Positions 10,888 to 30,177 of a stretch of DNA of 42,669 nucleotides are shown in pieces (position 1 is the stretch's first letter; every line of letters begins with the position of its first letter). The notes below the pieces were generated by a model. That model did not search any database, was not told where the DNA came from, and saw only the letters and a program-made list of their open reading frames with translations. A program made the translations under genes and the position numbers. This DNA is from an uncultured Calditrichaceae bacterium. Its GTDB lineage: Bacteria; Calditrichota; Calditrichia; RBG-13-44-9; J075. The stretch covers positions 1 to 42,669 of the forward strand of contig CAYQGB010000003.1 of assembly GCA_964416895.1 (NCBI GenBank), given 5' to 3'.

Positions 10888-10949
10888 ACTTCTCAAACTG
10901 TCACGTGATAGTACACCCTCGATACCCCAATATCCTGATACTCCGCTTC

Positions 10950-12346: not shown

Positions 12347-12402
12347 AGCTCGCCTCATAAGATTGCGATTACCGAACAAATTCGAGAAAAGGGCAGGGGA
12401 GA

Positions 12403-12490
12403 GGAAACCGTTTAAACGGTTTCCGGATGTTTTTTTAAACCGTTTAAACGGTTTAAAATCCTCCCGCGTAAAACCGTTTAAACGGTTTTA
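12403..12490. promoter_or_regulatory. three copies of the perfect palindrome AACCGTTTAAACGGTT
   Basis: ggAAACCGTTTAAACGGTTTcc 12403-12424, ttAAACCGTTTAAACGGTTTaa 12435-12456 and taAAACCGTTTAAACGGTTTta 12469-12490. Centre-to-centre spacing 32 and 34 bp. Lies between shdrB3-like and lbpA. Confidence 0.8.
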
Positions 12491-13753: not shown

Positions 13754-14489
13754 GCTGTTGTTCCTCCGTATTGTACACGCCCAGCAGTCGGCGGGAAAAC
13801 TCCGCCAGACCGGGCATTACTTTGTTGAACTCCTGAGTCATGCGCAGGCGCAGCACAGTATACACGTAGATTACATACACGCAGGCCAGAAAGGCGTCCA
13901 CGCCGAAAGACCCCTCACCGATGACCTCGAAACCGGCGGCTTCGCCCACGTGGCGCACGAACGACAGCGCCTCTCCCAGCCGCAAATACGTTGCGCCGAT
14001 GCCTCCCGCCTCCAGATCGTACTCCTCTACCAGCACCAGGGGAAGCGCCCCGGTTTTGTTCCGGGGATCCCATATCCAGCGGGTCCACAGCCAGTGTTGC
14101 TTCGGGTGGGTGAAATGGAGCAGCTCGCTGCCCAGGTCGAAGCGCAGCGTTTCTTCCACGGCGGTGACCTGCCCGCAGAACCGTTCCAGGCGCTGATGAA
14201 CCTCTCCCGACCCGTAAAGCAGGTCGTTCATCCAGGCAACCAGCTGTTCTGCGCCGTGGGTCTCGATCAACCGGCGAGCCTTGCGGCGCACGGAAAAGAT
14301 TTGCCGCAGCAGGGAGTACAGGGCCTTTTCATCTAGATCGGGCAGCCTTTGCGGCGCCAGGGTTTCCTGGAAGTAGCGGCTTTTCACCTCCATGTCCTGA
14401 CAGATGCGGTACAGTTCCGCCACGGAAATCTTGCCCATGGCTTCTTTCATAAATTCCCGGGCGGAATCGATGTCCATAATTTGCGCCAT
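13740..14489 (-). CDS. conserved hypothetical protein in the shdrH position
   Basis: Good coding ORF between shdrA and the fused hdrCB, with a 14-nt overlap downstream. Start set to ATG MAQIMDIDSA because the longer GTG start lies inside a REP hairpin. No recognisable motif. Confidence 0.55.
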   Translation of the reverse strand: MAQIMDIDSAREFMKEAMGKISVAELYRICQDMEVKSRYFQETLAPQRLPDLDEKALYSLLRQIFSVRRKARRLIETHGAEQLVAWMNDLLYGSGEVHQRLERFCGQVTAVEETLRFDLGSELLHFTHPKQHWLWTRWIWDPRNKTGALPLVLVEEYDLEAGGIGATYLRLGEALSFVRHVGEAAGFEVIGEGSFGVDAFLACVYVIYVYTVLRLRMTQEFNKVMPGLAEFSRRLLGVYNTEEQQHAGG

Positions 14490-14558
14490 AGCTACCCGAT
14501 GGTTTTTACTGGCAAATTCTGATGCCTTGAGGCAAAAGGCTGCCCCGGTTAACTTTCC

Positions 14559-14850
14559 GGTCACCTTTCGACAAGCTCAGGGTGACCGATCCGGGTCATG
14601 CTGAGCCTGTCGAAGCATGACCGCTTCGGGTTATCCTTAGCCCGTTTCATAATTGCTTGTAGGGTTTCAAAACACAGCTTTTCCGCCTCCTTCCACCGCT
14701 CCTGCGGTGGAAGGAAGAGAAGGCGCTCCCGCGCCTACCTATTCTTCCACCTAACCCTACAAGAATTACTGAAATAGACCACTTAGCTTGTTGAAGCATG
14801 AGCGCTCCGGGTTATCCGGGGCTGCTGAGCCTGTCGAAGCATGCCCCCCG
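14559..14850. repeat. nested REP/MITE-like palindromic element inside the shdr operon
   Basis: Hairpins GGTCACC-ttcgacaagctca-GGTGACC (14559-14587), GGTCATGC-tgagcctgtcgaa-GCATGACC (14594-14622) and a third at 14817-14848. Outer inverted repeat cttgtagggtt (14655-14665) / aaccctacaag (14752-14762) around the central hairpin ccttccaccgc-tcct-gcggtggaagg. Confidence 0.75.
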
Positions 14851-14914
14851 CTCCTGAAATTCCCTTCGCTTCTCGCCCTGCCCGCCTGGGGTTAGCAGGT
14901 TATCGCCACCCGAC

Positions 14915-15976
14915 TCAGGCCGATACCTCCGCCAGATTGCGCACGGTGCTGATGGCCTTCATGGCCGCCAGCCCGGCGGCGGAGATGCTGTCTTCCAGAT
15001 CGGCCGGCCCGGTGCAGGCCCCGGCGGCAAACACCCCCGGCACCGAGGTGGTAACCGTATCCAGCGGCCCGCCCAGCGTTTCGATAAAATTGTACTTGTT
15101 CTGCTTCAGACCGAAGATTTTGGCCATCTCCCGGGTACCCGCGCTGGGTTCCATGCCCACGGAAAGCACCACTATATCCATGGGAATTTCAAACGGTCGG
15201 CGCATGGTGGTATCTTCCCCCCGCACCAGCAGCTTATCCCCTTTCTTGAGGATTTCCGTGGCAATGCCCTTGATGTAGTTGACGTGATACTTCTCCTGCG
15301 CCGGCCAGTAGATTTCGTTTTCCCAGTAGCCGTACATCCGCATATCGATGTAGAAGATGTACACCTTGCAGTCGGGAAGCTGCTGGCGGATTTCGATGGC
15401 CTCTTTGGAAGCGATCCCGCAGCAGACTTTGGAGCAGTACTCATTCCCGATGCGCCGATCCCGGGACCCCACGCACTGGATGAAGCACACCCGTTCCGGG
15501 GGCTGCCCGTTGGACGGCCGCACCACCCGATGGGCTTTGAGCATCCGCTCGCAATCCACCAGAGTGATCACGTCTTCGTATTCGTAATAGCCGTACTTCT
15601 GGGTTTCTCGACCGGGATCAAAGTGCTGGAACCCGGTGGCGATGATCACCGCTCCCACGTTCACTTTTTCCGACTGTTTGGCGTTCTTGATGGTCACCGT
15701 GAAGTCGCCCACCTGTCCTTCGGCGGCCACCACGGTGGATTGCAGGCGCAACTCCACGTTGGGATTGTTCTCCACCCGGGAAATCATCTCGTTCATGGCC
15801 TCTTCCGCGCTGCGCAGATCCGGGGTCAGGGCGGCGTATTCCGCTTCGTCAGGAGTACCGCCTAAGCGATGGCGCTTTTCTACCAGAATGGCTTTATAGC
15901 CCAGATCGGCAATGCCCCGGGCCGCTTCCAGTCCTGCCGGGCCGCCTCCGATTACCAGAATGTCTTGACTAGGCAT
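14915..15976 (-). CDS. shdrA: sulfur-oxidation-type HdrA-like flavoprotein (short form)
   Basis: ILVIGGGPAGLEAA FAD fold. CFIQCVGSRDRRIGNEYCSKVCC is the HdrA [4Fe-4S] cysteine signature. Only 353 aa, with no inserted ferredoxin domains. Confidence 0.9.
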   Translation of the reverse strand: MPSQDILVIGGGPAGLEAARGIADLGYKAILVEKRHRLGGTPDEAEYAALTPDLRSAEEAMNEMISRVENNPNVELRLQSTVVAAEGQVGDFTVTIKNAKQSEKVNVGAVIIATGFQHFDPGRETQKYGYYEYEDVITLVDCERMLKAHRVVRPSNGQPPERVCFIQCVGSRDRRIGNEYCSKVCCGIASKEAIEIRQQLPDCKVYIFYIDMRMYGYWENEIYWPAQEKYHVNYIKGIATEILKKGDKLLVRGEDTTMRRPFEIPMDIVVLSVGMEPSAGTREMAKIFGLKQNKYNFIETLGGPLDTVTTSVPGVFAAGACTGPADLEDSISAAGLAAMKAISTVRNLAEVSA

Positions 15977-17168
15977 CTGCGTCCTCCCAGGTTAAGTATT
16001 CCTTTTCACCCTTCTTGATCTTCTCTACCGCGTCCTCAAATTCCTGCCATTTCTGCTTCCAGTCGATTCCTAACTTCTCGAAGAACGGTTTGTTATCCGT
16101 GTTGTGCCAGTGCAGTTGCAGCACCTTGTAGGGATGGGCGCCCATGGCCAGCGCCGCCATTTGCGAATCGGACATTACCGGAACCCCGACGTTCTTCCCG
16201 TGGGCCCGCCCGGCAAACTGACTCTGATCCAGCGTGGTAACGCAGCCGGTATCGTGGGTTACCACGATGTCCGGGTTGGCTTCGTTTTTCATCACTTCGA
16301 TTTTGCGCTGCACGGCAAAGGAGCGGGAGAAATCCCGGGACACCAGGATGTGCCGGAATCCAAAGCCGCAGCAGTCATACCAGGTGGAATAATCCGCCAC
16401 ATTCACCCCCAGCGCTTTCAGGGTACCGGTAACGATGGCCGACCGCTGTGCTCCGTAGATTTCTTCATCGTAGATGGCGTCCTCTTCCACCAACTTGTGA
16501 TAGTGACAGGCCGGGTGCACCGTGGCGGTGATGTGGCTCATGTCGATTTCCTGCCGGTCGGCGATGCGGTCCCGGATGGCATACACCCACTCGCTGTAGT
16601 GCACGATCTCTTCCGGCATAACCAGCTTTTTGCCCAGCCGCTCCATGATCTCCCGCACCTGGCGGCGCAGATCGTGATGGTGCAGCAGTTCATGGCGTAC
16701 CTCTTTGTAATGTCCGAAGCTGGTGCCGCAATGGATGATGGGAAAGTAGCCGGTTTCGTAGGCGGCGCCGAAGTTACGGGCAGCCACCGCCGCCTGGGCC
16801 GCGGCGTTGGAAGTGGCCGAGGCGTAATAATTCCAGGCAGTGCAGGAGGTCTGATCCCGGGGGTCGATATAATCGAAGCCCAGTTTCCGGTTGATCCAGA
16901 AAATCGAGGTGGAATATCCCGGAATGTGCCCGCACTGGCCGCAGCTTTTATGGTGCCAGGTGTGTTCCAGGGGAATCTTCTTTTTGCGCCCGTACTTGGT
17001 GGTTACCTCCACATACGGTTCGGGCACCCGCTGAACAATCAGTTCCCCCTCCTTTTCCAGTTGAAACAGAATATCGTGAAAATCCTCCGTGGGAGCCTCT
17101 TCCGGCGTGGTCTTGAATCCCGGAGTCTTCCCGGCTTTGATGACTTCTTCAACGGGGATATGGCTCAT
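15969..17168 (-). CDS. shdrB1: HdrB-like CCG-domain protein
   Basis: CCG-type motif WYDCCGFGF plus further conserved Cys. 8-nt overlap with shdrA. Sits between hdrC-like and hdrA-like. Confidence 0.85.
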   Translation of the reverse strand: MSHIPVEEVIKAGKTPGFKTTPEEAPTEDFHDILFQLEKEGELIVQRVPEPYVEVTTKYGRKKKIPLEHTWHHKSCGQCGHIPGYSTSIFWINRKLGFDYIDPRDQTSCTAWNYYASATSNAAAQAAVAARNFGAAYETGYFPIIHCGTSFGHYKEVRHELLHHHDLRRQVREIMERLGKKLVMPEEIVHYSEWVYAIRDRIADRQEIDMSHITATVHPACHYHKLVEEDAIYDEEIYGAQRSAIVTGTLKALGVNVADYSTWYDCCGFGFRHILVSRDFSRSFAVQRKIEVMKNEANPDIVVTHDTGCVTTLDQSQFAGRAHGKNVGVPVMSDSQMAALAMGAHPYKVLQLHWHNTDNKPFFEKLGIDWKQKWQEFEDAVEKIKKGEKEYLTWEDADA

Positions 17169-17213
17169 GGCTTACCCTCGCAATTTATATGATTGAATGG
17201 TTTCCTTTTGGGA

Positions 17214-17957
17214 TCAATCAAACGTGACATCGTCGTACCCGGCTTCCTCCAGGCGCTCTTCCATCACGTCTTGCAGGATCATAAACAGCCCCTCATCCAC
17301 CTCTTTGATCATGTCCATCACCCCGGTCATGTGCCAGATGAGGTACAGCTCGATCATGGTTTTCTCATCCACGTCCCAGCCGATTTCGGTGGTGTGCAGG
17401 GTTTCCGGGGGCAGCGCCCGACGCCAGAGCTCTAAGTTCTCGGAGATCTCATGCACGTGGGTACCCCAGTCGGGGAAGGCATCCGGTTGGAGCATATCCG
17501 GGGAAACCTGGGTTCCGGTGGACATGATTTTGTAGATGATCCGGCCGTAGCCTTCCAGAGCCTCCCGGGCGGTTTGCAGACCGTTTTTCACCGCCACTTC
17601 CCGCAGCAGGGTGATCAGCCCGCCCGGCGAATTCCCCCGGGGGCAGCGGTCACAGGAGAAGCACTGGGAACAATCCCAGATGCTGTCGTTCATCAGGGTG
17701 TACACCAGTTCCACGTCTTCCCGGGCGCAGGCCTGGGCGATCACCCGGGGACTGAAATCGTAGAAGCGCGCCGACGGGCAGGCGGCCACGCACACGCCGC
17801 ACTCATAACATCCGTAGAGCACGTCTTTATAGCGAATATCGGCCTTGACTTCTTCAAACAGCCGCTTTTTCTCCTCGTACGGCACCTCGGCATAGCGATC
17901 CTGAGATAGATCCAGCGGATACGTATTCAAAGCATGAGAATCCTGCCAGGCGGCCAT
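17214..17957 (-). CDS. shdrC1: HdrC-like 2x[4Fe-4S] protein
   Basis: CYECGVCVAACP and CSQCFSCDRCP. Confidence 0.85.
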   Translation of the reverse strand: MAAWQDSHALNTYPLDLSQDRYAEVPYEEKKRLFEEVKADIRYKDVLYGCYECGVCVAACPSARFYDFSPRVIAQACAREDVELVYTLMNDSIWDCSQCFSCDRCPRGNSPGGLITLLREVAVKNGLQTAREALEGYGRIIYKIMSTGTQVSPDMLQPDAFPDWGTHVHEISENLELWRRALPPETLHTTEIGWDVDEKTMIELYLIWHMTGVMDMIKEVDEGLFMILQDVMEERLEEAGYDDVTFD

Positions 17958-17982
17958 GGGGTATCTCCTTTTCCATTAAACG

Positions 17983-18453
17983 TTAGTCTTCGAAGCCTTC
18001 CAGATGCTCGCAGGCTTTGATGTCTTCTTTTTCGATCTTTTCCCGATAAGCCTGCACCGCATCATCGCCGGTGTGTAGCTCTTTCAGCTCTTCATCCAGA
18101 TTGGAGGGTTTGAGTTTGACAATCCAGCCTTTTTTGTACGGGCTGCGATTGAGCAGTTGGGGATCGGAGGCGAGCGCCTCGTTGACTTCCACAATTTCCC
18201 CGGAGATGGGGGTTTTGACCGGCCCCACCCACTTGCTGCTCTCCACCGTTCCGATGGGTTTTCCTTTGGCCCGTGTGGTGCCCACTTTTTTCACCCGGGC
18301 GTGCAGAATCGGCCCGGCCAGATTTTGAGCCACGTCGGTCATTCCCACGGTCACCGTGCCGTCATCGTTGGGCTGCGCCCAGGTGTGATCATCCACCGCA
18401 TAGTACAACTGTTTCAGGATCACACACCCTCGAATTTCTTCACGATCTGCCAT
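17983..18453 (-). CDS. lbpA: GcvH-like lipoate-binding protein (LbpA-type), second copy
   Basis: ATG at 18453 with GAGGAA upstream. GTVESSKWVGPVKTPISGEIVEVN carries the lipoyl-Lys motif. First gene of the shdrC1B1A unit. Confidence 0.85.
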   Translation of the reverse strand: MADREEIRGCVILKQLYYAVDDHTWAQPNDDGTVTVGMTDVAQNLAGPILHARVKKVGTTRAKGKPIGTVESSKWVGPVKTPISGEIVEVNEALASDPQLLNRSPYKKGWIVKLKPSNLDEELKELHTGDDAVQAYREKIEKEDIKACEHLEGFED

Positions 18454-18528
18454 GTCAACGTTCCTCACCGTTTAGAGTCCTTCCGGGGATTGCAGGGTAA
18501 GGGGAATATTGTGCGACAGGCGAAGCAC

Positions 18529-18572
18529 CGTATTGCGTAATGCGTATTTCGTGAGGACATTACGCAATACGC
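18529..18572. repeat. TACGCAA-type heptamer inverted repeat
   Basis: cgtattgcgtaatgcgtatttcg ... tacgcaatacgc. The following acgctattcc is shared with the copy at 32746-32765. Confidence 0.7.
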
Positions 18573-18641
18573 TATTCCCGATTTTTCTTATCTCCACGTA
18601 TGTAATCGCGCACCCCAATACCCCTTAATATCCTGATTCCC

Positions 18642-19022
18642 TTAAAAATACATCACATGATCCGCATTCAACGCCAGATCGATGATGCTGGTGGCGCCCA
18701 GAATTTCCACTCCCTCGATCAAATCCTCTTTGGTCATGTTCCACAAATCCATGCTCTGCTGGCACACCCGCAGTTTGACCCCGGCTTCCAGAGCCTGATC
18801 CAGCAAGGTCTTCAGGGTGACATCGCTGGTGGGATCCAGTTGCACTTTTTCCGCCTCGCCTTTTTTCAACTGATTGGTGCCGTTCATGGTGAACCATACC
18901 ATCACATCCATCTCCATGGCTGCGGCGGCCATGGCGTAAAAAATCGGCGAGTACGTGCGGGTGGGGGTATCCACCCCGTGGGTTTGAATCACCAGAATCT
19001 TTTTGCCTTCCAGATCTTCCAC
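18642..19022 (-). CDS. DsrE/DsrF-like family sulfur-relay protein (126 aa)
   Basis: KILVIQTHGVDTPTRTYSPIFYAMAAAAM...VCQQSMD...GATSIIDL follows the DsrE/YchN pattern. GTG start with GGAGG 7 nt upstream. Confidence 0.75.
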   Translation of the reverse strand: MEDLEGKKILVIQTHGVDTPTRTYSPIFYAMAAAAMEMDVMVWFTMNGTNQLKKGEAEKVQLDPTSDVTLKTLLDQALEAGVKLRVCQQSMDLWNMTKEDLIEGVEILGATSIIDLALNADHVMYF

Positions 19023-19100
19023 TGCTTACCTCCGATTTTTGAATAGTGATGTAAATTGGCGCTTTTCGTTGGTCTAAAAAGTTTCCAGGTCTTTTGCCAT

Positions 19101-19294
19101 CGTGCGTGATGCGTGATTATTTGCCTTCATTCGGTGTGTCCTAGGCTTACGAAAAACAGCCAAAACCCGATGACTTCCGCTTTATCTCTTGATACGTGAT
19201 ACGTGATTGTTTTTTACATATATGATTATTTTTTCACGCATTACGCATCACGTTTCACGCATCACGCATTACCATTACGCATCACGTTTCACGC
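19101..19294. repeat. CACGCAT/CACGTTT heptamer arrays in inverted orientation around an AT-rich core
   Basis: cgtgcgtgatgcgtgat (19101-), gatacgtgatacgtgat (19191-), AT core tgttttttacatatatgattatttttt, then tcacgcattacgcatcacgtttcacgcatcacgcattaccattacgcatcacgtttcacgc (19234-19294). Confidence 0.8.
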
Positions 19295-19635
19295 TTTTCG
19301 GTTTCTGCTTCGGGTAAATCATCTTCCAAAGAAATAGTGCAGGGTTTGAAGGGATCGGCCAGCACGATCAGGTGCTGCCGTTCCCAATCCCATTCCTCCT
19401 CCAGTTCCATCATGTGCTCGTGCAGATCCTCTTTCCGGGGGCTGTGGCGGATCAGCCGCAGCTTTACCGGGGTCTGGTTTGCGTTGACCTCCAGAACTTC
19501 CAACAGCAGCCATTCCCCGGCTTTTTCCTGATAAATCCGGGCAATGTCCGGCAATGTGAGAATTTTGTCTTCCCATTCACTCACGGCTTTCCCATCAGCT
19601 CTGGGCAATTTTTTCTGACAGAGTGGCAATGGCAT
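19282..19635 (-). CDS. small hypothetical protein (alternative GTG start at 19584)
   Basis: ORF directly after the second ligase gene. The ATG start overlaps that gene by 41 nt, whereas the GTG at 19584 lies 11 nt after its stop. Acidic, no motif. Its last codons lie in the heptamer repeat. Confidence 0.45.
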   Translation of the reverse strand: MPLPLCQKKLPRADGKAVSEWEDKILTLPDIARIYQEKAGEWLLLEVLEVNANQTPVKLRLIRHSPRKEDLHEHMMELEEEWDWERQHLIVLADPFKPCTISLEDDLPEAETEKRET

Positions 19636-20674
19636 CTACCCAATCCGGAATGGTGACTCCGGGCGTTTGAATGCCTTCCTCCAGATAAAACTTTTGAATC
19701 CGACGCAACAGGGTGGAGCGGTTAGCCTTTACCCCCCGGAGGGTCTCTTCCAATTGCCGAATTTTCTCCTGGGGATAAAAGGTAAAATCTCCGGAAATAA
19801 GGATGTCGTCAATATGGTGGTCTCGCAGGCGCAGGGTAATGCGGATCAGGCCCCCGGGGGTTTTGACCTGAGTTTCCCCCACCCATACACCGCCGTGAAT
19901 TTTGACCGCCGGTCGGGCGTATCCCCCTTTGGAGAACAACCACTCCTCTGTGGCAAACTTCCGTTCGGTGTCGGCAATGGCCTGTTCTTCGGCCCCGGTC
20001 AGCTCTCCCACTTCCACCCGTTCGCCGAAAATCTTCTCGCATTCTTCCACATACAGCCGGATGACTTCTTCCCGTTGTGGAAGCGTGTTCAGTTCCTTCT
20101 TCATGGTGGTCATGTAATCCCGAAGGCCGGAATACACTTTGTCGCGAAACTTCTCATCCGGCACCCGCAGGATTCTGGCCATCAGATCGATGTTGAAGTC
20201 GAACATGAAATTGCCCACCAGCACCTCGGCCTGACCGATTCGGGCGGCGCCCAGACCGGCAATTTTACGCCCGGCCACCTGGATGTCGTTGATGGGGCGG
20301 AAGTAAGCCTCGATCCCCAGCCGCTTGTAGGTCTGAATAATGGGGAGGGCATGGAGGCGGAACCGTTCATCCACCCGCATGGGCAGTGAGGAAGGCGAAA
20401 ACACCCACTGGGTAAACAGTTGATCCTGATCCAGATATACCGCTCCCCCGCCGACTTCCCGGCGAACGATGGGCAAATCATGGGCCCGGCAAAACTCCAC
20501 ATCCACCTCTTTGGTGACCTCCTGGTGAAATCCAATGCAGATGTACGGAGCCGAGGGGGTAACCAGCAGGATGGTGTTGGGGCTTTGAGAATGAAAGGCC
20601 CGCGCCACGCCGTGATATACCGCCTGGGAACGTAGCGGCGGCACCGTGCCCATGTGGATCAGGCGAATGGCCAT
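19595..20674 (-). CDS. second LplA-family lipoate-protein ligase paralog
   Basis: VRREVGGGAVYLDQDQL and NDIQVAGRKIAGLGAARIG match the same motifs as the 9580-10719 protein. Confidence 0.85.
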   Translation of the reverse strand: MAIRLIHMGTVPPLRSQAVYHGVARAFHSQSPNTILLVTPSAPYICIGFHQEVTKEVDVEFCRAHDLPIVRREVGGGAVYLDQDQLFTQWVFSPSSLPMRVDERFRLHALPIIQTYKRLGIEAYFRPINDIQVAGRKIAGLGAARIGQAEVLVGNFMFDFNIDLMARILRVPDEKFRDKVYSGLRDYMTTMKKELNTLPQREEVIRLYVEECEKIFGERVEVGELTGAEEQAIADTERKFATEEWLFSKGGYARPAVKIHGGVWVGETQVKTPGGLIRITLRLRDHHIDDILISGDFTFYPQEKIRQLEETLRGVKANRSTLLRRIQKFYLEEGIQTPGVTIPDWVDAIATLSEKIAQS

Positions 20675-21427: not shown

Positions 21428-21667
21428 TTAATGGGTTTTTTTGATATGGAACCGATACTTCCCCTCTTCCTCCTGCGCCAGCAGCAGCTCATGCCCTGTC
21501 TGTCGTGCCCACGCCTCCATATCAGGAATCGAACCCGGATCGGTGGCGATCATCTCCAGCACCTGCCCCACTTCCAATTCCTTCATGGCCTTGTTGGTCT
21601 TGACCACCGGCATGGGGCAGAGCAAACCGGAGCAATCCAGGGTCTGATCGACGGTGTAATCGGCCAT
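21428..21667 (-). CDS. tusA: TusA-family sulfur carrier
   Basis: LDCSGLLCPMPVVKTNKAMKEL contains the canonical CPxP active-site motif. Confidence 0.92.
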   Translation of the reverse strand: MADYTVDQTLDCSGLLCPMPVVKTNKAMKELEVGQVLEMIATDPGSIPDMEAWARQTGHELLLAQEEEGKYRFHIKKTH

Positions 21668-21683: not shown

Positions 21684-21914
21684 TTATTTTTGGATGAAGA
21701 AACGGGTAAAATCTTCCCGTGCGTAGATGTCCAGCAGTTTGTATCCGGTCAGCCGACTCCAGGCGGCAATATCCAGATGGGCCGCGGGATCGTCGGAGAG
21801 CAGTTCCAGCACCTCACCTTTCCGAAGGGGCGCCAGGGCCGCCGGCAATTTCAAAATGGAAACAAATACATCCATTCCACGACAATCCAGGCATTTGCTT
21901 ACCACGATGGTCAT
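21684..21914 (-). CDS. TusA-like protein lacking the CPxP active-site cysteine
   Basis: LDCRGMDVFVSILKLPAAL aligns to LDCSGLLCPMPVVKTNKAM of the neighbour. The active-site Cys-Pro is replaced by Val-Phe. The rest of the fold pattern (EVLELLSDDPAAHLDIAAW) is kept. Confidence 0.75.
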   Translation of the reverse strand: MTIVVSKCLDCRGMDVFVSILKLPAALAPLRKGEVLELLSDDPAAHLDIAAWSRLTGYKLLDIYAREDFTRFFIQK

Positions 21915-22420: not shown

Positions 22421-22756
22421 CTACCCAAAAGCAATGGAAGCGGTGGATTGATAAGTTCCTCCCTGGTTGTCCCGAAAGATCATTTTCAGCGGGGCCTGTT
22501 TGGTGGCTTTCAAATAGAAGCTGAACAGAGGATTCTGGCTGACGCCGGCCCCGATTTCAAAGTGGGCGATCTTGTCCTCGCCGTAGTATACTTCTACATC
22601 TTCGATGTAATGTGCCGGAATGCGTTCCCCGGTGCGGCGATTCTTTCGCCTTCCCGTTTCCATGGGGTGGATGATGATGCACTTCACTTCCACAAGGTCA
22701 TTGGGATGAATCGACCGGGGAAGTTTGATCTTGCTTTTGCCGATTTTAATGCCCAT
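22421..22756 (-). CDS. soxZ: SoxZ sulfur-compound-binding protein
   Basis: VEVKCIIIHPMETGRRKNRRTGERIPAHYIEDVEVYYG...SQNPLFSF is the SoxZ pattern. Immediately follows soxY. Confidence 0.88.
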   Translation of the reverse strand: MGIKIGKSKIKLPRSIHPNDLVEVKCIIIHPMETGRRKNRRTGERIPAHYIEDVEVYYGEDKIAHFEIGAGVSQNPLFSFYLKATKQAPLKMIFRDNQGGTYQSTASIAFG

Positions 22757-22827
22757 AGCCCAACCTTTCTATTTTGCAGGATTTTTACCGTACTTTGTCC
22801 CACAGTATCCCATATATGGCCGGTTTA

Positions 22828-23307
22828 TCATCCGCATCCACTCAGGGTTACCCGCACCGAACGCTGCCCGTGGAACAGTTCTCCGGTGTTGGTTTCGGCG
22901 ATGGCGTGCACCGGACTGGTTTCGGCCATCTTGATCCGGGTGCTGATGTAGGCCTTACCGTTGGCCGGGGTGAGGTGAAACTTTCCGATCAGCGGAACGG
23001 GGTTCTTCTGAGAAAGGATGTAAATGGTCTGGATGTATTGATCCGCCTCCATGGGAAAATCCACTTCCACGGCCACGGGAACGGTGGCGCCGTTTTCGGC
23101 CAATTCCGGAGCGGAGACGCTCACCCGTTCGCGCTGCATGGCCCGGTCTCCGAACAACCGCTGCATGGCCGCCTCGAAGCTTTCCTCGATGTAATGGCTT
23201 TCCCGGGAAGGGGATTGCTGCGCTTTCAGCCCGGAAGGGAAAAACATTATGCCCAGCCCGATCTTTCCCAGAAATATGACAAATTCCCGACGGGACAACC
23301 ACTTCAT
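22828..23307 (-). CDS. soxY: SoxY sulfur carrier protein
   Basis: Tat-like SRREF signal, AENGATVPVAV and a C-terminal ...VTLSGCG (swinging-arm Cys). Confidence 0.88.
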   Translation of the reverse strand: MKWLSRREFVIFLGKIGLGIMFFPSGLKAQQSPSRESHYIEESFEAAMQRLFGDRAMQRERVSVSAPELAENGATVPVAVEVDFPMEADQYIQTIYILSQKNPVPLIGKFHLTPANGKAYISTRIKMAETSPVHAIAETNTGELFHGQRSVRVTLSGCG

Positions 23308-23341
23308 GCTGCTGCTCCTTAACTCGTGTTTCGGTGAATGG

Positions 23342-24076
23342 TTACAGGTCCAGTATCGCCTGGGAATACTCCTCCATGGGAACTACCACCGTGGTTCCGG
23401 TAACCGGGGCCCGGGCGGCCTGAGTATCCCCAAACTGTTTTCGCAGTTCTTTGCGAAACTCTTTGAAAAAGCGGTGGAACAGTTCCGGCCCCAGCACTCC
23501 CACCGCCCACAGGGTATCGTCTCCCCGATGTTCCAGAACGATGGCCGCCAGGGGCTGTTGGGCTTCCCCGGCAAGGTTTTTGGCCCCCACCGCCGGATCG
23601 TACACCGAGTTATGGGCTGCACACACGATAACCCCGCCTCGTGAAAAAGCGGTGGTGTTGCCGGAACGGGGCACATACCGGAGAAAGCTGACATCCTTCC
23701 GAATGTAGGAGAGTTGATGGGCGCAGATGCCCGAATAAGCCACCACCGTGCCCTCCTTGCCGGCGCCGTTTCGCCAGAGATACTCCTCCCCATCTTCGGA
23801 GCGCAGCCGTACCTCCCCCACCGCCGGTTCCGGTAAATTGATCAGGATGCAGGGAGTGGAAATATAGGGATAGTTGAACACGTAATTCTGCTCTTTCTTC
23901 AGTTTTCCGGCGCGAATGGGATTGCCCTGCGCATCTACCAGTTGCACGATCTCATACGGATGAAACATGGGGCCTTCCCCCACCGGGGTATACAGCACCT
24001 TCCGAACACAGGAAGGGCTGATCGCCACCGCCGTTAATCCGGCGCCAACCAGCTTGAGGAAATTCCGTCGGTTCAT
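23342..24076 (-). CDS. Tat-exported Rieske-type [2Fe-2S] protein
   Basis: MNRRNFLKLVGAG Tat signal. CAH ... CAAHNSVYD resembles the Rieske boxes CxH and CxxHGSxFD, without the disulfide cysteines and with a longer spacer than classic Rieske proteins. Confidence 0.7.
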   Translation of the reverse strand: MNRRNFLKLVGAGLTAVAISPSCVRKVLYTPVGEGPMFHPYEIVQLVDAQGNPIRAGKLKKEQNYVFNYPYISTPCILINLPEPAVGEVRLRSEDGEEYLWRNGAGKEGTVVAYSGICAHQLSYIRKDVSFLRYVPRSGNTTAFSRGGVIVCAAHNSVYDPAVGAKNLAGEAQQPLAAIVLEHRGDDTLWAVGVLGPELFHRFFKEFRKELRKQFGDTQAARAPVTGTTVVVPMEEYSQAILDL

Positions 24077-24182
24077 AGGCGCATACTCGTTTCCGGTTTA
24101 TCTTTATTCCCCATACAAAAAAGGAGGTGTGGAAAGGACTGCCCCTCCCCACACCTCTGGTCCAGCCCATCCAGGCCCAACC

Positions 24183-25532
24183 TCAGGTCAGCATGTCCCG
24201 ATACAGCCCTTTGGCCCATTCCAGCAATGCCTGACCGGCCTGAGTGCCCTTGTCCGTGTCCCAGAGTTCCATGGTGCTGGCGTTGGCGAACTGGAATTGC
24301 CCCTTTTCTTTGTTGTAGGCGTATCCGGCCTGCACTTTAATCGCCCGCAGCGGCTCTCCGGCAACCGCTGAATAGCATATCGTGGTGGGCGATTCCCAAG
24401 GGGTTTCCTTCCCGGCGATGCGGTTGGCGATCACTTTGGCCACGAACTTGCCTTCCGAGTTGGCCGTGTTGCCGCTCTTGCTGAAGGCCATGGGGCGGGC
24501 ATCTCCGGCGATAAAGACGTGCTCATCGTCCACCGCCTGATAGGTGAACACGTCGATGTTGGCCTCGCCTTTGTTGATCCCGTCTTTAGCCAGCCCCACC
24601 TGCTCCACCAGTTTGGCGCCTCGCACCCGGGGATAGATGGCCGCATCGGCAAATTGGATCTGGTCGCCCAGTTCCGTTTCCACCACTTTCTTATCCAGAT
24701 CGATCTTGACGATGGGGCTGCTGGGATAGTATTCCACGTAATCCTTGTACAGCTCATCAAACGCCGAGTGGAAGCCGTCTTTCTTGATGGTGATGTCCGG
24801 GTTTTCATCCAGCAGAACCACCTTTCCGGGAATCCCTTCCCGCTTGAAATAGTCGGCGATCATGCAGGTGCGCTCATACGGCGCCGGCAGACAGCGGTAG
24901 TTCCCGCCGGGGCAGGTGAGCAGGAAGATCCCTTTCTCGAAGGCTTCCACCTTTTCCTTCAGGTAAAGGTGTTCCCCCATGGGAATAAATCCACCGGGAT
25001 ATTCCTGACGCAGGCGGGCCTCGGTTTCGGTGTCATCGCCCACCAGGCGGGAATAGTCATAGTCGATCCCCGGCGCCAGCACCAGATAGTCGTAGTTCAC
25101 CGTCCCTTCGGTGGTGTGCACGATCCGTTTGGCCCGATCCACATCCACCACCCAGGCGTTGAGATAGTAGTACTTGTTGTTCACCGCCGGGCGATGGAAG
25201 CTGTGCATCAGAAAATCCAGGTTCAGCAACCCGGAAACCCACAGATTGCTCACCGGGCTGGACATAAATCCGGAGCGCTTGTCAATCAGAACCACGTCGA
25301 TGCCGGCGTTGTACTTCTTGAGATACTTGGCGATGGTCAGCCCGGACCACCCCGCACCGACAATGACCACCCGGGGGCCGTTGGGTTTGGGAATCGGCGC
25401 CGCCGTGGCGGGGATCAAATTCAGATATTTGCCCGACAGTCCGGTGGCTGCCTGCCCTCGACCCCAGCTCAATAGCGCACCCAGCCCTCCCACTCCGGTG
25501 AGCTTCAGAAAATCCCGTCGCTTGAGGCTCAT
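24183..25532 (-). CDS. Tat-exported FAD-dependent sulfide dehydrogenase flavoprotein-like (FccB/SoxF-like)
   Basis: MSLKRRDFLKLTG Tat signal. VVIVGAGWSGLTIAKYLK dinucleotide fold. Length and overall pattern match the flavocytochrome c sulfide dehydrogenase flavoprotein family. Confidence 0.8.
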   Translation of the reverse strand: MSLKRRDFLKLTGVGGLGALLSWGRGQAATGLSGKYLNLIPATAAPIPKPNGPRVVIVGAGWSGLTIAKYLKKYNAGIDVVLIDKRSGFMSSPVSNLWVSGLLNLDFLMHSFHRPAVNNKYYYLNAWVVDVDRAKRIVHTTEGTVNYDYLVLAPGIDYDYSRLVGDDTETEARLRQEYPGGFIPMGEHLYLKEKVEAFEKGIFLLTCPGGNYRCLPAPYERTCMIADYFKREGIPGKVVLLDENPDITIKKDGFHSAFDELYKDYVEYYPSSPIVKIDLDKKVVETELGDQIQFADAAIYPRVRGAKLVEQVGLAKDGINKGEANIDVFTYQAVDDEHVFIAGDARPMAFSKSGNTANSEGKFVAKVIANRIAGKETPWESPTTICYSAVAGEPLRAIKVQAGYAYNKEKGQFQFANASTMELWDTDKGTQAGQALLEWAKGLYRDMLT

Positions 25533-25615
25533 AACGTACCTCCATCGGTTAAATGTGAAACGGCGTAACAGTTGAAAAACCCCTCTCCGCTTCCTGGCCT
25601 GATCCTGTAAGGTGA

Positions 25616-26809
25616 TTACATCAGGGTAAAGATGCGTTTAACCTCATTCCAGGTGATGAGCAGACTGAACAGCCCTAAGCCTCCCAGAGTGATCAGCAGG
25701 GCGGCCTTCCAGCCGACCAGGTCGGGGAAAAACACCGGCTCGCCCAGCTTTGCCATCAACTCGTTTTGCATCAGCCAGTGATTGAACAGCGCTCCCACCA
25801 CGGCAAAGGCCAGCAGCGCCACCCCCAACCGGAGGTGCCCTTCGCCCAATCGCCACAGGGAACCGGAAGCGCACCCGCCGGTCAAAGACATGCCGAACCC
25901 GAAGATTACCCCTCCCAGGAGGCCTCCCATCCAGAAGGTGCCCCGAACCCCGTCCAGCAGACGATCCTCCAGCGTTTCGATGGAAGCCCACTTGATCACC
26001 GAAAACCCGATCACCCCGATCATCAATCCCAGGATGACCCCCCGGGTCATGCTGCCTTCGCCGGTGAGAAAGGGTTCCCGGAAGGCCTTCACAAAGCAGA
26101 ACCGGGAGCGTTGATTGACCAGGCCCAGGAAAACCCCGAACAGCAGAAAGACCCCCGCTTTGGGATAATGTAGCCGGTCGTACAAAAAGCTAAGCCCCAG
26201 AGCGAGCAGCGCCAGAATCCCCCCGACGACCGGCTGCCAGCTACGGGGAGAGGAGGGATTGCCCGCCGGGGCGGCTGCCGGAGAAGCGCCGATCCAGCGC
26301 AAAGGCAGATGTTCGGTCTCCCACAGCAGGTAGCGGATTCCCAGGTAGGCGCCCACCGCCAGGCCTCCCATCATGGCCACCCCGCCCAGGGAGAGGGCGC
26401 TGACGGCGCTGAAAAATCCCCCGATGTTGCAGCCCAGAGAAAGATTGGCGCCGATGCCCATAAAAGCGCCTCCCACCACCGCTTTGAACATCTCCCAGGG
26501 AGGCGAGGAACGAAAACCGAACTGCCGGGAAAATAAGGCGGCAATCGCGGCGCCCAGAACCAGGCTCAGGTTCAGAATCGAATTGGGATAGAGCAGCAGG
26601 GGAAAGATGTCCCGCTCCTCCCCGTAAAATCCCACCCAATTCAGTAGATGTTGCCCCCAGTTCAACACCCCTAAAAAAGTTGTCCAGGGTTCCGCATAAG
26701 CGAACAGGAGCACGTTGGTCATGCCCAGGAGCAAACCACCGATCCAGGGCGCCCAGGGATTATTCCCAAAAACTTTCGCATACCGGTCGGAGAACACTTG
26801 ACGAAGCAT
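25616..26809 (-). CDS. yeeE: YeeE/YedE family sulfur-compound (thiosulfate) transporter
   Basis: Polytopic membrane protein with two repeated halves, each carrying the GGCxxG-type motif (LSLGCNIGG, LTGGCASGS). Confidence 0.85.
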   Translation of the reverse strand: MLRQVFSDRYAKVFGNNPWAPWIGGLLLGMTNVLLFAYAEPWTTFLGVLNWGQHLLNWVGFYGEERDIFPLLLYPNSILNLSLVLGAAIAALFSRQFGFRSSPPWEMFKAVVGGAFMGIGANLSLGCNIGGFFSAVSALSLGGVAMMGGLAVGAYLGIRYLLWETEHLPLRWIGASPAAAPAGNPSSPRSWQPVVGGILALLALGLSFLYDRLHYPKAGVFLLFGVFLGLVNQRSRFCFVKAFREPFLTGEGSMTRGVILGLMIGVIGFSVIKWASIETLEDRLLDGVRGTFWMGGLLGGVIFGFGMSLTGGCASGSLWRLGEGHLRLGVALLAFAVVGALFNHWLMQNELMAKLGEPVFFPDLVGWKAALLITLGGLGLFSLLITWNEVKRIFTLM

Positions 26810-27050
26810 GGAGATACATCCTCAACTTAACGGTGCGCGCAGTCTCGGACGGGAAAGCCTAAGCAGATAAGGGTATCGCTAAAAAAATGGGTTTATGGAC
26901 ACGAGGATAAACGGATTGTACGGTCGAGAACACCGCAGGCCTCTCCTTGTTGAAGAAAGAATCTTTTCCAAAAATCATACCAGTTAGGGGCTATTGTGGA
27001 AAGGGCCTCTCCTTCAGGCCGCGTATAAGCGCAAATTTTAGCCGTTTTGC

Positions 27051-27240
27051 CGGTATAGGTGGTCTCCTTTTTGAGTGTTGTTGCTCGGGAATTGAGAGCA
27101 TTGCTTTGTCATACTGAGCCTGTCGAAGTATGACAAAAACCGCTAAATAGTTGTCACCCTTCGACAAGCTCAGGGTGACACAAGACAGCTAAAACATGAG
27201 CAACACTCCTCAAGGAAACTACCGCCGGTATATTGGCGGG
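27051..27240. mobile_element. REP/MITE-like nested palindromic element, same hairpin family as 14559-14850
   Basis: GTCATAC-tgagcctgtcgaa-GTATGAC (27107-27137) and GTCACCC-ttcgacaagctca-GGGTGAC (27151-27183). Imperfect outer inverted repeat ggtctcctttttgagtgttgttgctc / gagcaacactcctcaaggaaactacc. Confidence 0.6.
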
Positions 27241-27319: not shown

Positions 27320-28672
27320 TTACAGGAGATGAAACTTCTTCATCCGGGTGCGCAACTGCTTGCGAGAAATGCCCAGCAGTTCCGCGGCTTTGCTCTGGTT
27401 CCAGTTGGTTTTTTCCAGAGCTTTCAGGATGGCGGTTCGTTCCAGGGTGGGGAGGTGGAGGGTTTCCGGTTCGGAGGTGGGGGCAGGGGAGGGGGCCTCG
27501 GCCAGCTTTTGCAAATTGGCGGGGAGGTTATCCACCACGATGGTGTTGTATCGGCTCATTACCACGGCGCGCTCCACGGTGTTGCGTAACTCCCGCACAT
27601 TGCCCGGCCAGTGGTAGCGCAGCAGCAGTTCCTCCACCGCCCGGTCAAATCCATGAAGGGATTTCTGATTTTCCCGGGCGAATTTCTGAAGAAAGTGATG
27701 GGCCAGAGGCAAAATGTCTTCCGGGCGTTCCCGCAGGGGGGGCAACTGAATGGAGATGACGTTGAGCCGGTAGTACAGGTCTTCCCGAAAAGTGCCCTGT
27801 TGCACGGCCTGTTCCAGATGCTTGTTGGTGGCGGCGATTAACCGGCACTTCACCGAGACCGGGCGATTGCCGCCGATGCGGAAGAACGAGCGCTCCTGCA
27901 GCACTCGCAGCAGTTTGACCTGGAGCAGTTTGGGCAATTCCCCGATTTCATCCAGAAACAGGGTGCCCTCCTGAGCCAGCTCCAGCTTGCCGATGGAGGT
28001 CTGATAAGCGCCGGTATAAGCCCCTTTCTCGTGGCCGAACAGCTCGTTTTCCATCAGTTCGTGGGGAATGGCTCCACAGTCCAGAGGAATGAACGGCGCT
28101 TCCCGCCGGGGGGAAAACTGGTGGATGGCCCGGGCGATCAGTTCTTTGCCCGTGCCGGATTCGCCGGAGATGAGCACCGTGGACGAGGCCTGGCTGACCA
28201 GCCGAACCATCTCCATAACCCGGCGCATGGCCTCACTTCGGGCGATGATCCCCGCCGTCCGGGCAGCCTGTTGCCAGGAATCCACCGGCTCGGTTTCCGC
28301 CTCTCCCTGCGCCCGTTGCAGGGTGTGCTCGATGATCATCACCACCTCGTCGTGATCCAGAGGCTTGGTCAGATAGTTGGTGGCCCCGGCGCGCATGGCC
28401 TCCACCGCATGTTCGATGTTGCCGTAGGCGGTGATCATCAGAATGGGAATAACCGGATTCACCGCCCGAATTTTTTTCAACAGGGTCAGCCCGTCGGTGC
28501 CTTTGAGCCTGTAATCGGTGATGATCAGGTCGATGTGCAGCTCGCGGGTAAAGTACGTCCAGGCCTCTTCGGCGCTCTGGGCGGTGAGCACCTGAAAGCC
28601 GTGATGGCTCAGGTTGGCCTTCATCACTTTGAGGATATTTTTCTCGTCATCTACGATGAGGATGGTGCACAT
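27320..28672 (-). CDS. sigma-54-dependent response regulator (REC-AAA+-Fis HTH, NtrC family)
   Basis: REC domain (ILIVDDE...), Walker [15 protein letters not shown] variant of the GAFTGA loop, and C-terminal [19 protein letters not shown]. Confidence 0.93.
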
Positions 28673-30177
28673 GGCTCAGGCCTCGATTGGAGCCGATGTT
28701 CGGTTTTGAGTGCATTGTCCGGAGCTACCGGGAGGGAAAAGGCCACCCGGGTGCCCTCTCCGGGATGGCTGGTTATGGTAATTTTGCCATGATGCCGCTG
28801 CACGATCTTCTGGGCCACCGCCAGCCCCAGGCCGGTACCCCCGGGTTTATCGGTATAAAAGGGCTTGAAGGCTTTTTCCACCTGTTCCGGGGACATGCCC
28901 ACGCCGTTATCGGCCACCTCGATGATCACCTGCGCACCCTCCTGCCGGGCGGAAATGGTGATTTGCCCTTCCCCGGAAACCGCATCCACGGCATTGAGCA
29001 GCAAATTCAACAGCACCTGATTGATCTGAGGGGGATCGGCCAGCACCTGCACGCCTTCGGGGAGGTTCAACGACAGGCGTATTCCCTTTTCCGCCAGATC
29101 CGGCTTCAACAGCTCCACCGATTTGCAGATCAGGGGTTGTAGCTCGCAGGGGGTCAGTTGCACCTCGATCGGTCGGGCGTATTCCAGCAAGCTGGTAACC
29201 ATGTTGTTGAGATTGGTCACGGAGTCTTCGATGACCCCGGTATATTCCGCTACCAGAGCGTTTTTCACCGTCTTGCGCAGATAGCCGGTAGCTCCCCGGA
29301 TGGAATATAAGGCGTTGCGGATTTCGTGGGCAACCTTCATGGCCACTTCCCCCAGGGCGGCCATGGTGTGCATCATCTGTTTTTCCTCGGTCAGCTGTTC
29401 CAGTTCCCGGAGGTAATTCCGCAAACTGTGGGCCATGCGGCGGAATCCCTGGTGCAACTGTTCAATTTCATCGGCAGGGTTTGAAGTTCCGGCAAACGCC
29501 GGTTCCCCATCCGGTTGTACTTCTTCTTCTAACTGCTGCAATTCGTTGCGGAGATGCTGGATGGGGCGGGTCAGGCGATTGGCCACCAGAATCGCTCCGG
29601 CCACCCCGATGACGAACACAATGGCAAACAGCAGAAGCAATTTTTGCCCCACATGGAACATGTTGGCGCGAATATTCTCGGCGACTTTTTCCCGGTCAAA
29701 TTCCACCCGCAGCAGCCCCAGCAATTCGCCTTGTATTTCCAGCGGCGCCAGATAAACGCCTTCTTCCAGGAGGAAAATTCGAGGGAGGGAATCCCGGGCG
29801 GCCCGGGGGAGAAGCGGGGTTTCCTGAGCCAGTTCCTGATCAATTTCCCCCAGGCGCTCGATGGCGGAGGAAGCAATCACCCGGAAGTGTGGATCATACA
29901 CTTCGATGGAGGCGATGGAGTGCCCCACCAGGCTGTGAATGCGGTTCATCAGATACTGCAGATCCTGCACCAGCAGCGGTTCCAGGAAATCATCCCGCAG
30001 GGAGCCGGTGGTCTCCCGCTGGGTGGCGCGTATCTGATGCAGAAAATCATTGCGGTTGGCAGAAAGCACCACCGCCGAAACGGTAATGAAGATGACCGTG
30101 ATCAACAGAATGATGGACACCAGCAGCTTGGTGCGGATGGAAAAGGAATGATGAAATGTGTCGATCCAGCGTCGCAT
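28651..30177 (-). CDS. membrane sensor histidine kinase (periplasmic domain-HAMP-HisKA-HATPase)
   Basis: H-box AHEIRNALYSIRG, N-box LLNLLLNAVDA, G-boxes DNGVGM and GTGLGLAV. Two TM segments. Confidence 0.9.
   Translation of the reverse strand: MRRWIDTFHHSFSIRTKLLVSIILLITVIFITVSAVVLSANRNDFLHQIRATQRETTGSLRDDFLEPLLVQDLQYLMNRIHSLVGHSIASIEVYDPHFRVIASSAIERLGEIDQELAQETPLLPRAARDSLPRIFLLEEGVYLAPLEIQGELLGLLRVEFDREKVAENIRANMFHVGQKLLLLFAIVFVIGVAGAILVANRLTRPIQHLRNELQQLEEEVQPDGEPAFAGTSNPADEIEQLHQGFRRMAHSLRNYLRELEQLTEEKQMMHTMAALGEVAMKVAHEIRNALYSIRGATGYLRKTVKNALVAEYTGVIEDSVTNLNNMVTSLLEYARPIEVQLTPCELQPLICKSVELLKPDLAEKGIRLSLNLPEGVQVLADPPQINQVLLNLLLNAVDAVSGEGQITISARQEGAQVIIEVADNGVGMSPEQVEKAFKPFYTDKPGGTGLGLAVAQKIVQRHHGKITITSHPGEGTRVAFSLPVAPDNALKTEHRLQSRPEPCAPSSS

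Follow-up and report, generated by a model that had tools for sequence, protein, structure and literature searches.

We analysed a 42.7-kb stretch of DNA (hereafter the window) from the 44.2-kb contig CAYQGB010000003.1 of an uncultured Calditrichaceae bacterium, whose sequence is present in hot-spring metagenome runs, and focused on a block of five genes in which a flavoprotein from the family of flavocytochrome c sulfide dehydrogenases (FCSD) is encoded together with a Rieske-type protein and with candidate components of sulfur carriage and import. These consecutive genes, all on the minus strand, encode a YedE/YeeE-family membrane permease, the flavoprotein, the predicted Rieske-type protein and the SoxY and SoxZ subunits of a sulfur carrier, and lie beside TusA and DsrE2-type sulfurtransferase genes and a type II sHdr-LbpA cluster (Table 1). 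An earlier note, made from the letters alone, had described the five genes as an operon in which the flavoprotein uses a Rieske partner instead of a cytochrome, and open reading frame (ORF) and domain scans confirmed the gene order, strand and coordinates on which this proposal was built. Statements on absent genes apply to the 42.7 kb of the window.

Table 1. Features of the window, with examples of the small CTSCH protein from related loci (coordinates of the respective locus).
Feature	Coordinates	Strand	Basis
YedE/YeeE-family membrane permease (397 aa), leading the block	25616..26809	-	PF04143 E=1e-47
FCSD-family flavoprotein, "non-canonical FccB", subtype A, Tat-exported, 449 aa	24183..25532	-	PF21706 + PF09242
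GC-rich hairpin of 15 bp, then U-run (UUUUUU)	24124..24157	-	terminator scan, RNA fold
Rieske-type [2Fe-2S] protein (predicted), Tat-exported, 244 aa	23342..24076	-	ligand boxes, AlphaFold2 fold
SoxY sulfur carrier, 159 aa, Tat motif SRREFV	22828..23307	-	TIGR04488
SoxZ, SoxY partner, 111 aa	22421..22756	-	TIGR04490, PF08770 E=7e-27
TusA-family gene without CPxP cysteine	21684..21914	-	PF01206 E=1e-12
Canonical TusA, CPMP	21428..21667	-	PF01206 E=7e-27
DsrE2-type sulfurtransferase, 176 aa	20872..21402	-	NF047629 214.6 bits (cut-off 210); PF13686 E=6e-48
Type II sHdr-LbpA cluster	3034..20674	-	Pfam + NCBIfam scans
LplA	19595..20674	-	
DsrE	18642..19022	-	
LbpA	17983..18468	-	
sHdrC1	17214..17957	-	
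sHdrB1	15969..17168	-	
sHdrA	14915..15976	-	
Hypothetical protein at sHdrH position	13740..14564	-	
sHdrB3, Fer4+CCG fusion	12488..13753	-	
Second LbpA	11897..12379	-	
Radical SAM protein	10950..11954	-	
Second LplA	9580..10719	-	
Radical SAM protein	8433..9548	-	
Radical SAM protein	7246..8346	-	
EtfB	6299..7066	-	
EtfA	5340..6302	-	
Emo-like FeS/CCG protein, 845 aa	3034..5571	-	
Nested imperfect palindrome, long, within the 510-bp region upstream of yeeE	27020..27235		inverted repeats I1, I2, I4, I5, I6, I8
Sigma-54-dependent response regulator	27320..28672	-	Pfam
Histidine kinase	28651..30177	-	Pfam
Periplasmic binding protein, two Phosphonate-bd domains, 507 aa	30561..32084	-	Pfam
Azurin-like cupredoxin, secreted, 166 aa	32098..32598	-	PF00127 E=1.5e-12; TIGR02695 azurin E=8e-14, below cut-off
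Small CTSCH protein, locus L001	10759..11181		
Small CTSCH protein, locus L089	10742..11140		
Small CTSCH protein, locus L090	13009..13401		
Small CTSCH protein, locus L092	4022..4426		

The flavoprotein carries a twin-arginine translocation (Tat) motif, SLKRRDFLKL, and displays the FAD Rossmann, central and C-terminal flavin-binding domains of the FCSD family (PF07992, E=4e-11; PF21706, 82.5 bits for a cut-off of 27; PF09242, 27.2 bits for a cut-off of 26). It aligned with the FccB subunit of Allochromatium (PDB 1FCD_A) across 358 residues with E=4e-38, sulfide:quinone oxidoreductases (SQRs) reaching only about 1e-7. C214 and C386 correspond to the redox-active Cys161 and Cys337 of FccB and are invariant across 20 aligned homologs, and the assignment to a Tat-exported FCSD-type protein was borne out, with the catalytic cysteine pair kept. 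No FccA-type c cytochrome subunit is encoded beside it within the window. Likewise, a six-frame scan of the whole window for CxxCH detected no c-type cytochrome, the sole occurrence of the motif being in the 4Fe-4S ferredoxin domain of the cytoplasmic Emo-like protein, which agrees with the earlier reading of a block devoid of haem-binding motifs.

The next gene encodes a 244-aa protein with a twin-arginine signal (MNRRNFLKL) and two putative ligand boxes, C118-A-H120 and C152-A-A-H155, 31 residues separating H120 from C152. Its score against the Rieske model PF00355 was below threshold (18.9 versus 20.3 bits), and the NCBIfam matches to SoxL2, an archaeal Rieske protein (8e-20), and to AioB (4e-12) were both under their cut-offs. 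Several of its homologs have a precomputed PF00355 match, and a phmmer search of the PDB retrieved the Sulfolobus Rieske protein II (1JM1, E=9e-7), whose boxes CVH and CPCHGSIY align with C118-A-H120 and C152-A-A-H155-N-S-V-Y; these alignments identify the protein as a divergent Rieske member. The two disulfide positions are occupied by Ser and Ala and never by Cys across its family, consistent with the long-spacered, disulfide-free Rieske-like protein first described. The AlphaFold2 model built from 67 homologs (mean pLDDT 87.6, above 93 beyond the signal peptide; pTM 0.82) adopts a Rieske fold, and the 50 best Foldseek matches in the PDB were all Rieske proteins or domains, AioB ranking first (TM-score 0.82–0.83, rmsd 1.7–2.2 Å), followed by 1JM1. 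Alignment and model thus converge on a genuine Rieske-fold protein, which would bind a [2Fe-2S] cluster, and the failure to model as such, named in the earlier note as a refuting outcome, did not occur.

AioB, the best structural match, resembles the window protein in being Tat-exported, soluble and disulfide-free, the latter being presumed for the NT-26 protein from the title of PDB entry 8R3A (F108C-G123C mutant). The window protein differs by a score below the AioB family cut-off, the lack of AioA, a longer inter-box spacer and, after the Rieske core, about 45 further residues that make up a conserved, helical C-terminal extension. An identity as arsenite oxidase subunit was rejected (TIGR02694, 46.3 bits for a cut-off of 95.65), no AioA or molybdoenzyme gene being present in the window.

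Relatives of this Rieske protein were found in at least 586 GTDB species representatives, mostly Sulfurimonas, Sulfuricurvum, Sulfurovum and other Campylobacterota, with some Betaproteobacteria such as Sulfuriferula, and none in the GTDB scan exceeded 52% identity to the window protein. Surveying 90 distinct loci recovered by tblastn and counting an FCSD gene if located within 3 kb, we found one beside the Rieske gene in 75 of them, in either gene order. These flavoproteins fall into a subtype A (23 loci), 49–65% identical to that of the window, and a subtype B (52 loci), 29–35% identical. The Cys-His-Cys-His ligand set was intact in all 75 FCSD-linked Rieske homologs, and co-occurrence was complete in the other direction as well: in the 15 FCSD-free loci, all beta- or gammaproteobacterial, the last His was replaced by Asp or Glu and a Cys-Cys doublet was present. 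Pairwise distances of flavoproteins and Rieske proteins were correlated (Mantel r=0.61, a value that none of 2000 permutations attained; 0.83 within each subtype), which fits co-inheritance of the pair as a unit, with a contribution of shared species history. Comparative genomics therefore strongly supports a redox pairing of the flavoprotein with the Rieske protein, the core pair being a widespread, earlier noticed and uncharacterised variant of flavocytochrome c sulfide dehydrogenase. That the five genes are adjacent by coincidence and functionally unrelated, as the hairpin lying between the flavoprotein and Rieske genes might suggest, is very unlikely indeed, given that the synteny recurs in Campylobacterota, in Betaproteobacteria-like contigs and in the window's own lineage, and that conservation of the ligand set tracks FCSD adjacency.

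The FCSD-free loci (L074–L088) form a sister subfamily in which box II begins with Cys-Cys and the fourth ligand is Asp or Glu. Its aligned members (P0101–P0110) have a C-terminal Cys, and in two loci examined an Mrp/ApbC-type Fe-S assembly ATPase is encoded two genes downstream, with a sigma-54 activator nearby. Many Campylobacterota flavoproteins of subtype A (for instance P0113, P0116 and P0117) have a lipobox-like L-x-G-C straight after the Tat motif, suggesting that they are Tat-exported lipoproteins; the window flavoprotein and an 82%-identical relative have no Cys at this position.

The flavoprotein–Rieske pairing is not in itself a new observation (PMC3504083; PMC10066037, Supplementary Note 2). 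Molari et al. (2023) reported non-canonical fccB genes without fccA in Sulfurimonas, Sulfurovum, Aquifex and Arcobacter, always adjacent to an AioB-like Rieske gene, and hypothesised, without testing it, that the Rieske protein is the electron carrier for FccB (PMC10066037, Supplementary Note 2). In Sulfurimonas pluma the non-canonical fccB shows high transcription, the putative FccB reaching 3,602 transcripts per million against 7 for Sqr (PMC10066037 source data). The window harbours the same two genes, with proteins 40–65% identical to the Campylobacterota members, but in another phylum (Calditrichota) and without the small cytochrome described below; SoxYZ, the small cytochrome, a transporter and a link to sHdr are unmentioned in that note (PMC10066037). 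In a Sulfurihydrogenibium-like "large sausage-shaped bacterium" (LSSB), Tamazawa et al. (2012) found the gene cluster cytochrome-like/dhsU1/Rieske/dhsU2/soxXYZAB, and showed that recombinant DhsU1 is a monomeric, sulfide-specific flavoprotein oxidising sulfide with horse cytochrome c (Km 16.5 µM), the Rieske protein and DhsU2 being left unstudied (PMC3504083). Both loci combine FCSD-type, Rieske and sox genes in a hot-spring host; the LSSB cluster differs by its cytochrome gene and its full soxXYZAB set, and either of its two DhsU proteins may be the ortholog of the window flavoprotein. Our literature searches for FccB or FCSD with Rieske and for Rieske with SoxYZ returned only these two studies. 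Compared with the classical FccAB (A. vinosum, 1FCD; Thioalkalivibrio, 5N1T), the window flavoprotein shares the family, Tat export, FAD Rossmann fold and redox cysteine pair, and differs by a Rieske partner in place of the haem subunit, a Ser in place of Cys42 and the tie to SoxYZ.

Regarding the fate of the electrons, a secreted protein of 130–140 aa ending in QCTSCHxRxR adjoins the Rieske gene in at least 39 of the 75 loci, in both subtypes, and is present in most Campylobacterota modules (examples in Table 1). It matched the cytochrome c' family (PF01322) weakly and below threshold, at the C-terminal haem site, and probably represents a class II cytochrome c taking electrons from the Rieske protein, so that the path in organisms bearing it is likely flavin to Rieske to small cytochrome c. 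Since this small cytochrome is common beside the Rieske gene, the Rieske protein is more likely an intermediate carrier than a cytochrome replacement. The proposal of a Rieske protein instead of a cytochrome thus held in its first part, the Rieske protein being the conserved partner of the FCSD, and oversimplifies in its second; the Rieske protein is probably an electron relay, and it is only the terminal carrier that the window lacks, no homolog of the CTSCH cytochrome being encoded there. About 5 kb upstream, a cupredoxin gene encodes a protein with a signal peptide and a C-x4-H-x3-M copper motif. AioB-type Rieske proteins reduce azurin or cytochrome c, which makes this azurin-like cupredoxin a candidate, if speculative, periplasmic acceptor of the Rieske protein.

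These observations also bear on a possible delivery of electrons to quinone by an SQR-like flavoprotein, the Rieske protein then having a different or regulatory role. Direct quinone reduction was not excluded by Molari et al. (PMC10066037), and the lipobox-like motif of many Campylobacterota homologs would place these at the membrane. We nonetheless consider this quite improbable, as the window flavoprotein has neither lipobox nor membrane anchor and is far closer to FccB than to SQRs, as the Rieske ligand set is intact strictly where an FCSD gene adjoins, and as a small cytochrome c gene is often adjacent.

The last two genes of the block encode SoxY (TIGR04488, 134.7 bits for a cut-off of 125) and SoxZ (TIGR04490, 97.7 bits for a cut-off of 76). 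SoxY possesses the carrier cysteine, Cys158, in a C-terminal SGCG, its alignment to PDB 4UWQ_B (E=7e-18) reaching the terminal GCG. Pfam scans of the window's large ORFs detected no SoxA, SoxX, SoxB or SoxCD, as already noticed at first reading, and neither SoxAX nor SoxB is encoded beside SoxYZ in the 42.7 kb. Because the window spans 42.7 of the 44.2 kb of the contig, soxAXB or fccA genes hidden just outside it in the same operon, the other outcome that could have overturned the earlier proposal, are excluded. SoxYZ recurs within the module in 12 of the 23 subtype-A loci, versus 0 of 52 for subtype B. The closest flavoprotein relatives (61–65% identity) have these genes in the window's order, FCSD-Rieske-SoxY-SoxZ, with the small cytochrome next, while the order is FCSD-SoxY-SoxZ-Rieske-cytochrome in Sulfuricurvum and SoxY-SoxZ-FCSD-Rieske, with no other sulfur genes nearby, on a proteobacterial-type contig with Tct transporters. 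The SoxY proteins of these modules end in GGCG or SGCG, like 4UWQ_B. The association of SoxYZ with the module, as read from gene order, is recurrent in three lineages and specific to subtype A.

This restriction to subtype A suggests a subtype-specific chemistry, and could indicate that the substrate, oxidised or mobilised by the pair, is SoxY-bound polysulfide, dissolved polysulfide or S8 rather than free sulfide, or that the pair reductively releases sulfide from a SoxY persulfide for import. Genes for FadL/TodX- or DcaP-type channels beside some modules, and at the far end of the window's sulfur cluster, point the same way. Such roles are nevertheless decidedly unlikely: the characterised LSSB relative was inactive on elemental sulfur, thiosulfate and sulfite (PMC3504083), the active-site cysteine pair is identical to that of sulfide-oxidising FccB, and the outer-membrane proteins of the different loci share no sequence similarity. 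These channel genes are of the FadL/TodX type in the window (1588–2949, minus strand, at the edge of the sulfur cluster) and in Sulfuriferula and of the DcaP type in Sulfuricurvum, and lie directly upstream of the flavoprotein gene in loci L005 (7027–8223) and L089 (6364–7533). Homologs of the window's FadL-like protein, cupredoxin and periplasmic binding protein were undetectable in 105 related loci, and a conserved outer-membrane channel or cupredoxin partner was consequently dropped.

The permease that leads the block belongs to the Sulf_transp family and exhibits the three conserved pore cysteines, its three Cys lying in motifs (RSRFCF, GGCASG and LGCNIGG) that align to those of TsuA Cys22, Cys91 and Cys293 (PDB 6LEO, E=3e-14). 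It falls outside the named NCBIfam equivalogs, with scores of 125 for a cut-off of 350 (YedE/FdhT) and 94 for a cut-off of 400 (TsuA). It is colinear with the YedE/FdhT model, and its homologous halves are reversed relative to TsuA, residues 222–346 aligning to TsuA 6–129 and residues 81–143 to TsuA 246–309; judging from these alignments, this half order is that expected from a fusion of pmpA-like and pmpB-like genes. Homologs at 50–59% identity lead canonical sox clusters, in the orders YeeE-SoxB-SoxX-SoxY-SoxZ-SoxA-DUF302 and YeeE-beta-propeller-SoxY-SoxB-SoxZ-cytochrome-DUF302. By synteny, this permease clade appears habitually tied to SoxYZ, and in the window the FCSD-Rieske pair takes the place of SoxAXB in these homologous clusters.

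Beyond soxZ, the two TusA-family genes, the DsrE2-type gene and the long sHdr-LbpA cluster follow. Naming the subunits by domains and gene order, we found that this cluster is complete and matches the type II architecture shdrC1B1AHB3-etfAB-emo defined by the Dahl group (PMC11094781). The first TusA-family gene has VFVS at the CPxP position and two N-terminal Cys (KCLDCRG). Neither sHdr nor sulfur oxidation is mentioned for Calditrichota in the two hot-spring surveys of metagenome-assembled genomes that we consulted (PMC6759342, PMC12501874). In Hyphomicrobium denitrificans, sulfane sulfur bound to SoxYZ is imported by the YeeE-like SoxT1A for the sHdr-LbpA pathway (Li et al. 2024, PMC11582611), and the same survey found SoxT transporters absent from type II sHdr genomes. 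As in that route, SoxYZ, a three-cysteine YeeE/YedE permease, TusA/DsrE and sHdr-LbpA are encoded together in the window (PMC11582611). The two differ in that SoxXAB load SoxYZ from thiosulfate and sHdr is of type I in Hyphomicrobium, whereas the window has a type II sHdr, a permease of YedE-like architecture and FCSD-Rieske instead of SoxXAB.

Taken together, the block is best read as a periplasmic FCSD-Rieske sulfide (or sulfane-sulfur) dehydrogenase with its own SoxYZ and YedE-type importer, fronting a type II sHdr-LbpA pathway, a reading to which we assign a probability of about 0.55. Sulfide would be oxidised at the Cys214/Cys386-FAD site in an FccB-like manner, and the two electrons would exit singly via the Rieske cluster (C118/H120/C152/H155) and reduce a soluble carrier of the periplasm, which is probably the co-encoded class II-like cytochrome c in Campylobacterota and may here be the cupredoxin or an unlinked cytochrome. 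The zero-valent sulfur would be caught as a persulfide on SoxY Cys158, making SoxAX and SoxB unneeded, and would then enter the cytoplasm by the three-cysteine channel of the YedE-type permease, to be taken over by TusA/DsrE and oxidised to sulfite by sHdr-LbpA, while the electrons of the sHdr step would reach quinone through EtfAB-Emo. Homology and one characterised relative speak for sulfide as the substrate, and the loading of SoxY and the import step are inferred from synteny. The broader scheme of the earlier note, from sulfide oxidation to SoxYZ, YeeE and sHdr, is thus partly supported, its substrate, the complex, cluster binding and the hand-over of sulfur to SoxY and on to sHdr being inferred parts of it.

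Several observations weigh against this reading. No gene for a terminal electron acceptor is present in the operon, and a covalent FAD link as through FccB Cys42 is not predicted, Ser92 occupying that position (as in the 82%-identical relative; most other family members have Cys there, and Sulfuricurvum Gly). No YeeE gene lies within 6 kb of the module in any of the 90 surveyed loci and SoxYZ is absent from 63 of the 75 FCSD-Rieske modules, so that the SoxY-loading and import steps rest on one arrangement and on indirect synteny; a flavoprotein scan of JGI metagenome contigs returned no closer relative with the same yeeE/sHdr arrangement. The term operon stands for five consecutive same-strand genes, but the hairpin between the flavoprotein and Rieske genes and the gap of 506 bp between soxZ and tusA make co-transcription uncertain, and no RNA runs containing the locus sequence were found. 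Finally, SoxAXB may be encoded elsewhere in the genome.

This last point leads to the main rival, the alternatives on substrate and quinone reduction being lesser ones: a SoxF-like accessory role, in which the pair would service SoxYZ by redox reactivation or adduct trimming, on behalf of a Sox system that has its SoxAX and SoxB genes in another part of the genome. SoxF of Paracoccus pantotrophus, encoded within the sox cluster, is like the window protein a periplasmic FCSD-type flavoprotein without tightly bound cytochrome and genetically associated with SoxYZ; it differs by its place in a complete sox cluster beside the cytochrome SoxE, and it is not known to have a Rieske partner. SoxF has been cited as a monomeric sulfide dehydrogenase (PMC3504083). 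FCSD-type flavoproteins also occur within sox clusters elsewhere, as the LSSB dhsU genes beside soxXYZAB (PMC3504083), Campylobacterota with the module usually have separate sox clusters (PMC10066037), and the single contig examined leaves room for such a system in this genome. We still regard the accessory role as unlikely, because the pair sits exactly at the SoxB/X/A position of the homologous transporter-led clusters, because the many modules without SoxYZ nearby better fit a self-sufficient dehydrogenase, and because the LSSB enzyme displays a plain sulfide:cytochrome c activity (PMC3504083).

Several non-coding elements and neighbouring genes accompany the block. The hairpin-bearing spacer of 106 bp that separates the Rieske gene from the flavoprotein gene folds with -43.6 kcal/mol (z=-3.2), and the hairpin looks like an intrinsic terminator or attenuator within the presumed operon that could set the flavoprotein:Rieske ratio. 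It alone stands out among sigma-70 and terminator scans that were overall at or near chance, as was a sigma-70-like site at 26974–27002. The long palindrome upstream of yeeE folds as RNA with -82.7 kcal/mol (z=-7.4), and each arm of its central 30-nt inverted repeat is itself palindromic, TGTCACCCT-N11-AGGGTGACA and TTTGTCATACT-N11-AGTATGACAAA. This palindrome may bind a regulator, act as a structured leader or represent a small palindromic element, and the only two matches of an Rfam search, both sub-threshold, fell on this region. A perfect 17-nt inverted repeat (CTGTGCCGTTTGGCACA / TGTGCCAAACGGCACAG, 27260–27309) is located immediately past the stop codon of the gene for the sigma-54 response regulator. 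Control of yeeE by this adjacent regulator is unsupported, sigma-54 promoter matches (TGGCAC-N5-TTGCW) being at chance level in number (22 versus 20.8 expected) and none falling in 26810–27319.

Immediately upstream of the sulfur block, the genes of the cupredoxin, the periplasmic binding protein, the histidine kinase and the sigma-54 regulator follow one another (27320–32598, minus strand) and may together serve to sense a sulfur oxyanion. Another pair of kinase and sigma-54 regulator genes occurs at 34483–37606, followed on the opposite strand by the gene of a 1432-aa protein (37669–41967, plus strand) with Ser/Thr kinase, adenylate/guanylate cyclase-like, AAA_16 and TPR domains; this gene lies in a stretch with a G+C content of 0.61–0.65 versus about 0.57 elsewhere.

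The apparent novelty lies in the module's association with SoxYZ in the absence of SoxAXB, with a YedE-type importer and with type II sHdr; our literature search found the module connected neither to these nor to the small cytochrome. The core pair occurs in at least 586 species-level genomes, including those of the abundant marine and subsurface Sulfurimonas, Sulfurovum and Sulfuricurvum, and genome surveys score its carriers merely as "fccB present, fccA absent". The arrangement provides candidates for how SoxYZ-bound or periplasmic sulfur enters the cytoplasm, and for what performs the import in type II sHdr organisms without SoxT (PMC11582611). A stronger version, tenable yet doubtful, would see in FCSD-Rieske a sulfide:SoxY "persulfide synthase" charging SoxYZ without SoxAX or SoxB and forming, with the importer and type II sHdr, a complete, undescribed sulfide-to-sulfite pathway free of SQR, sulfur globules and Sox cytochromes; if true, the permease would become the first importer of sulfur ascribed to an organism with type II sHdr. 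The arrangement is useful in proposing a complete and testable route from sulfide to sulfite, and the locus points to dissimilatory sulfur oxidation in hot-spring Calditrichota.

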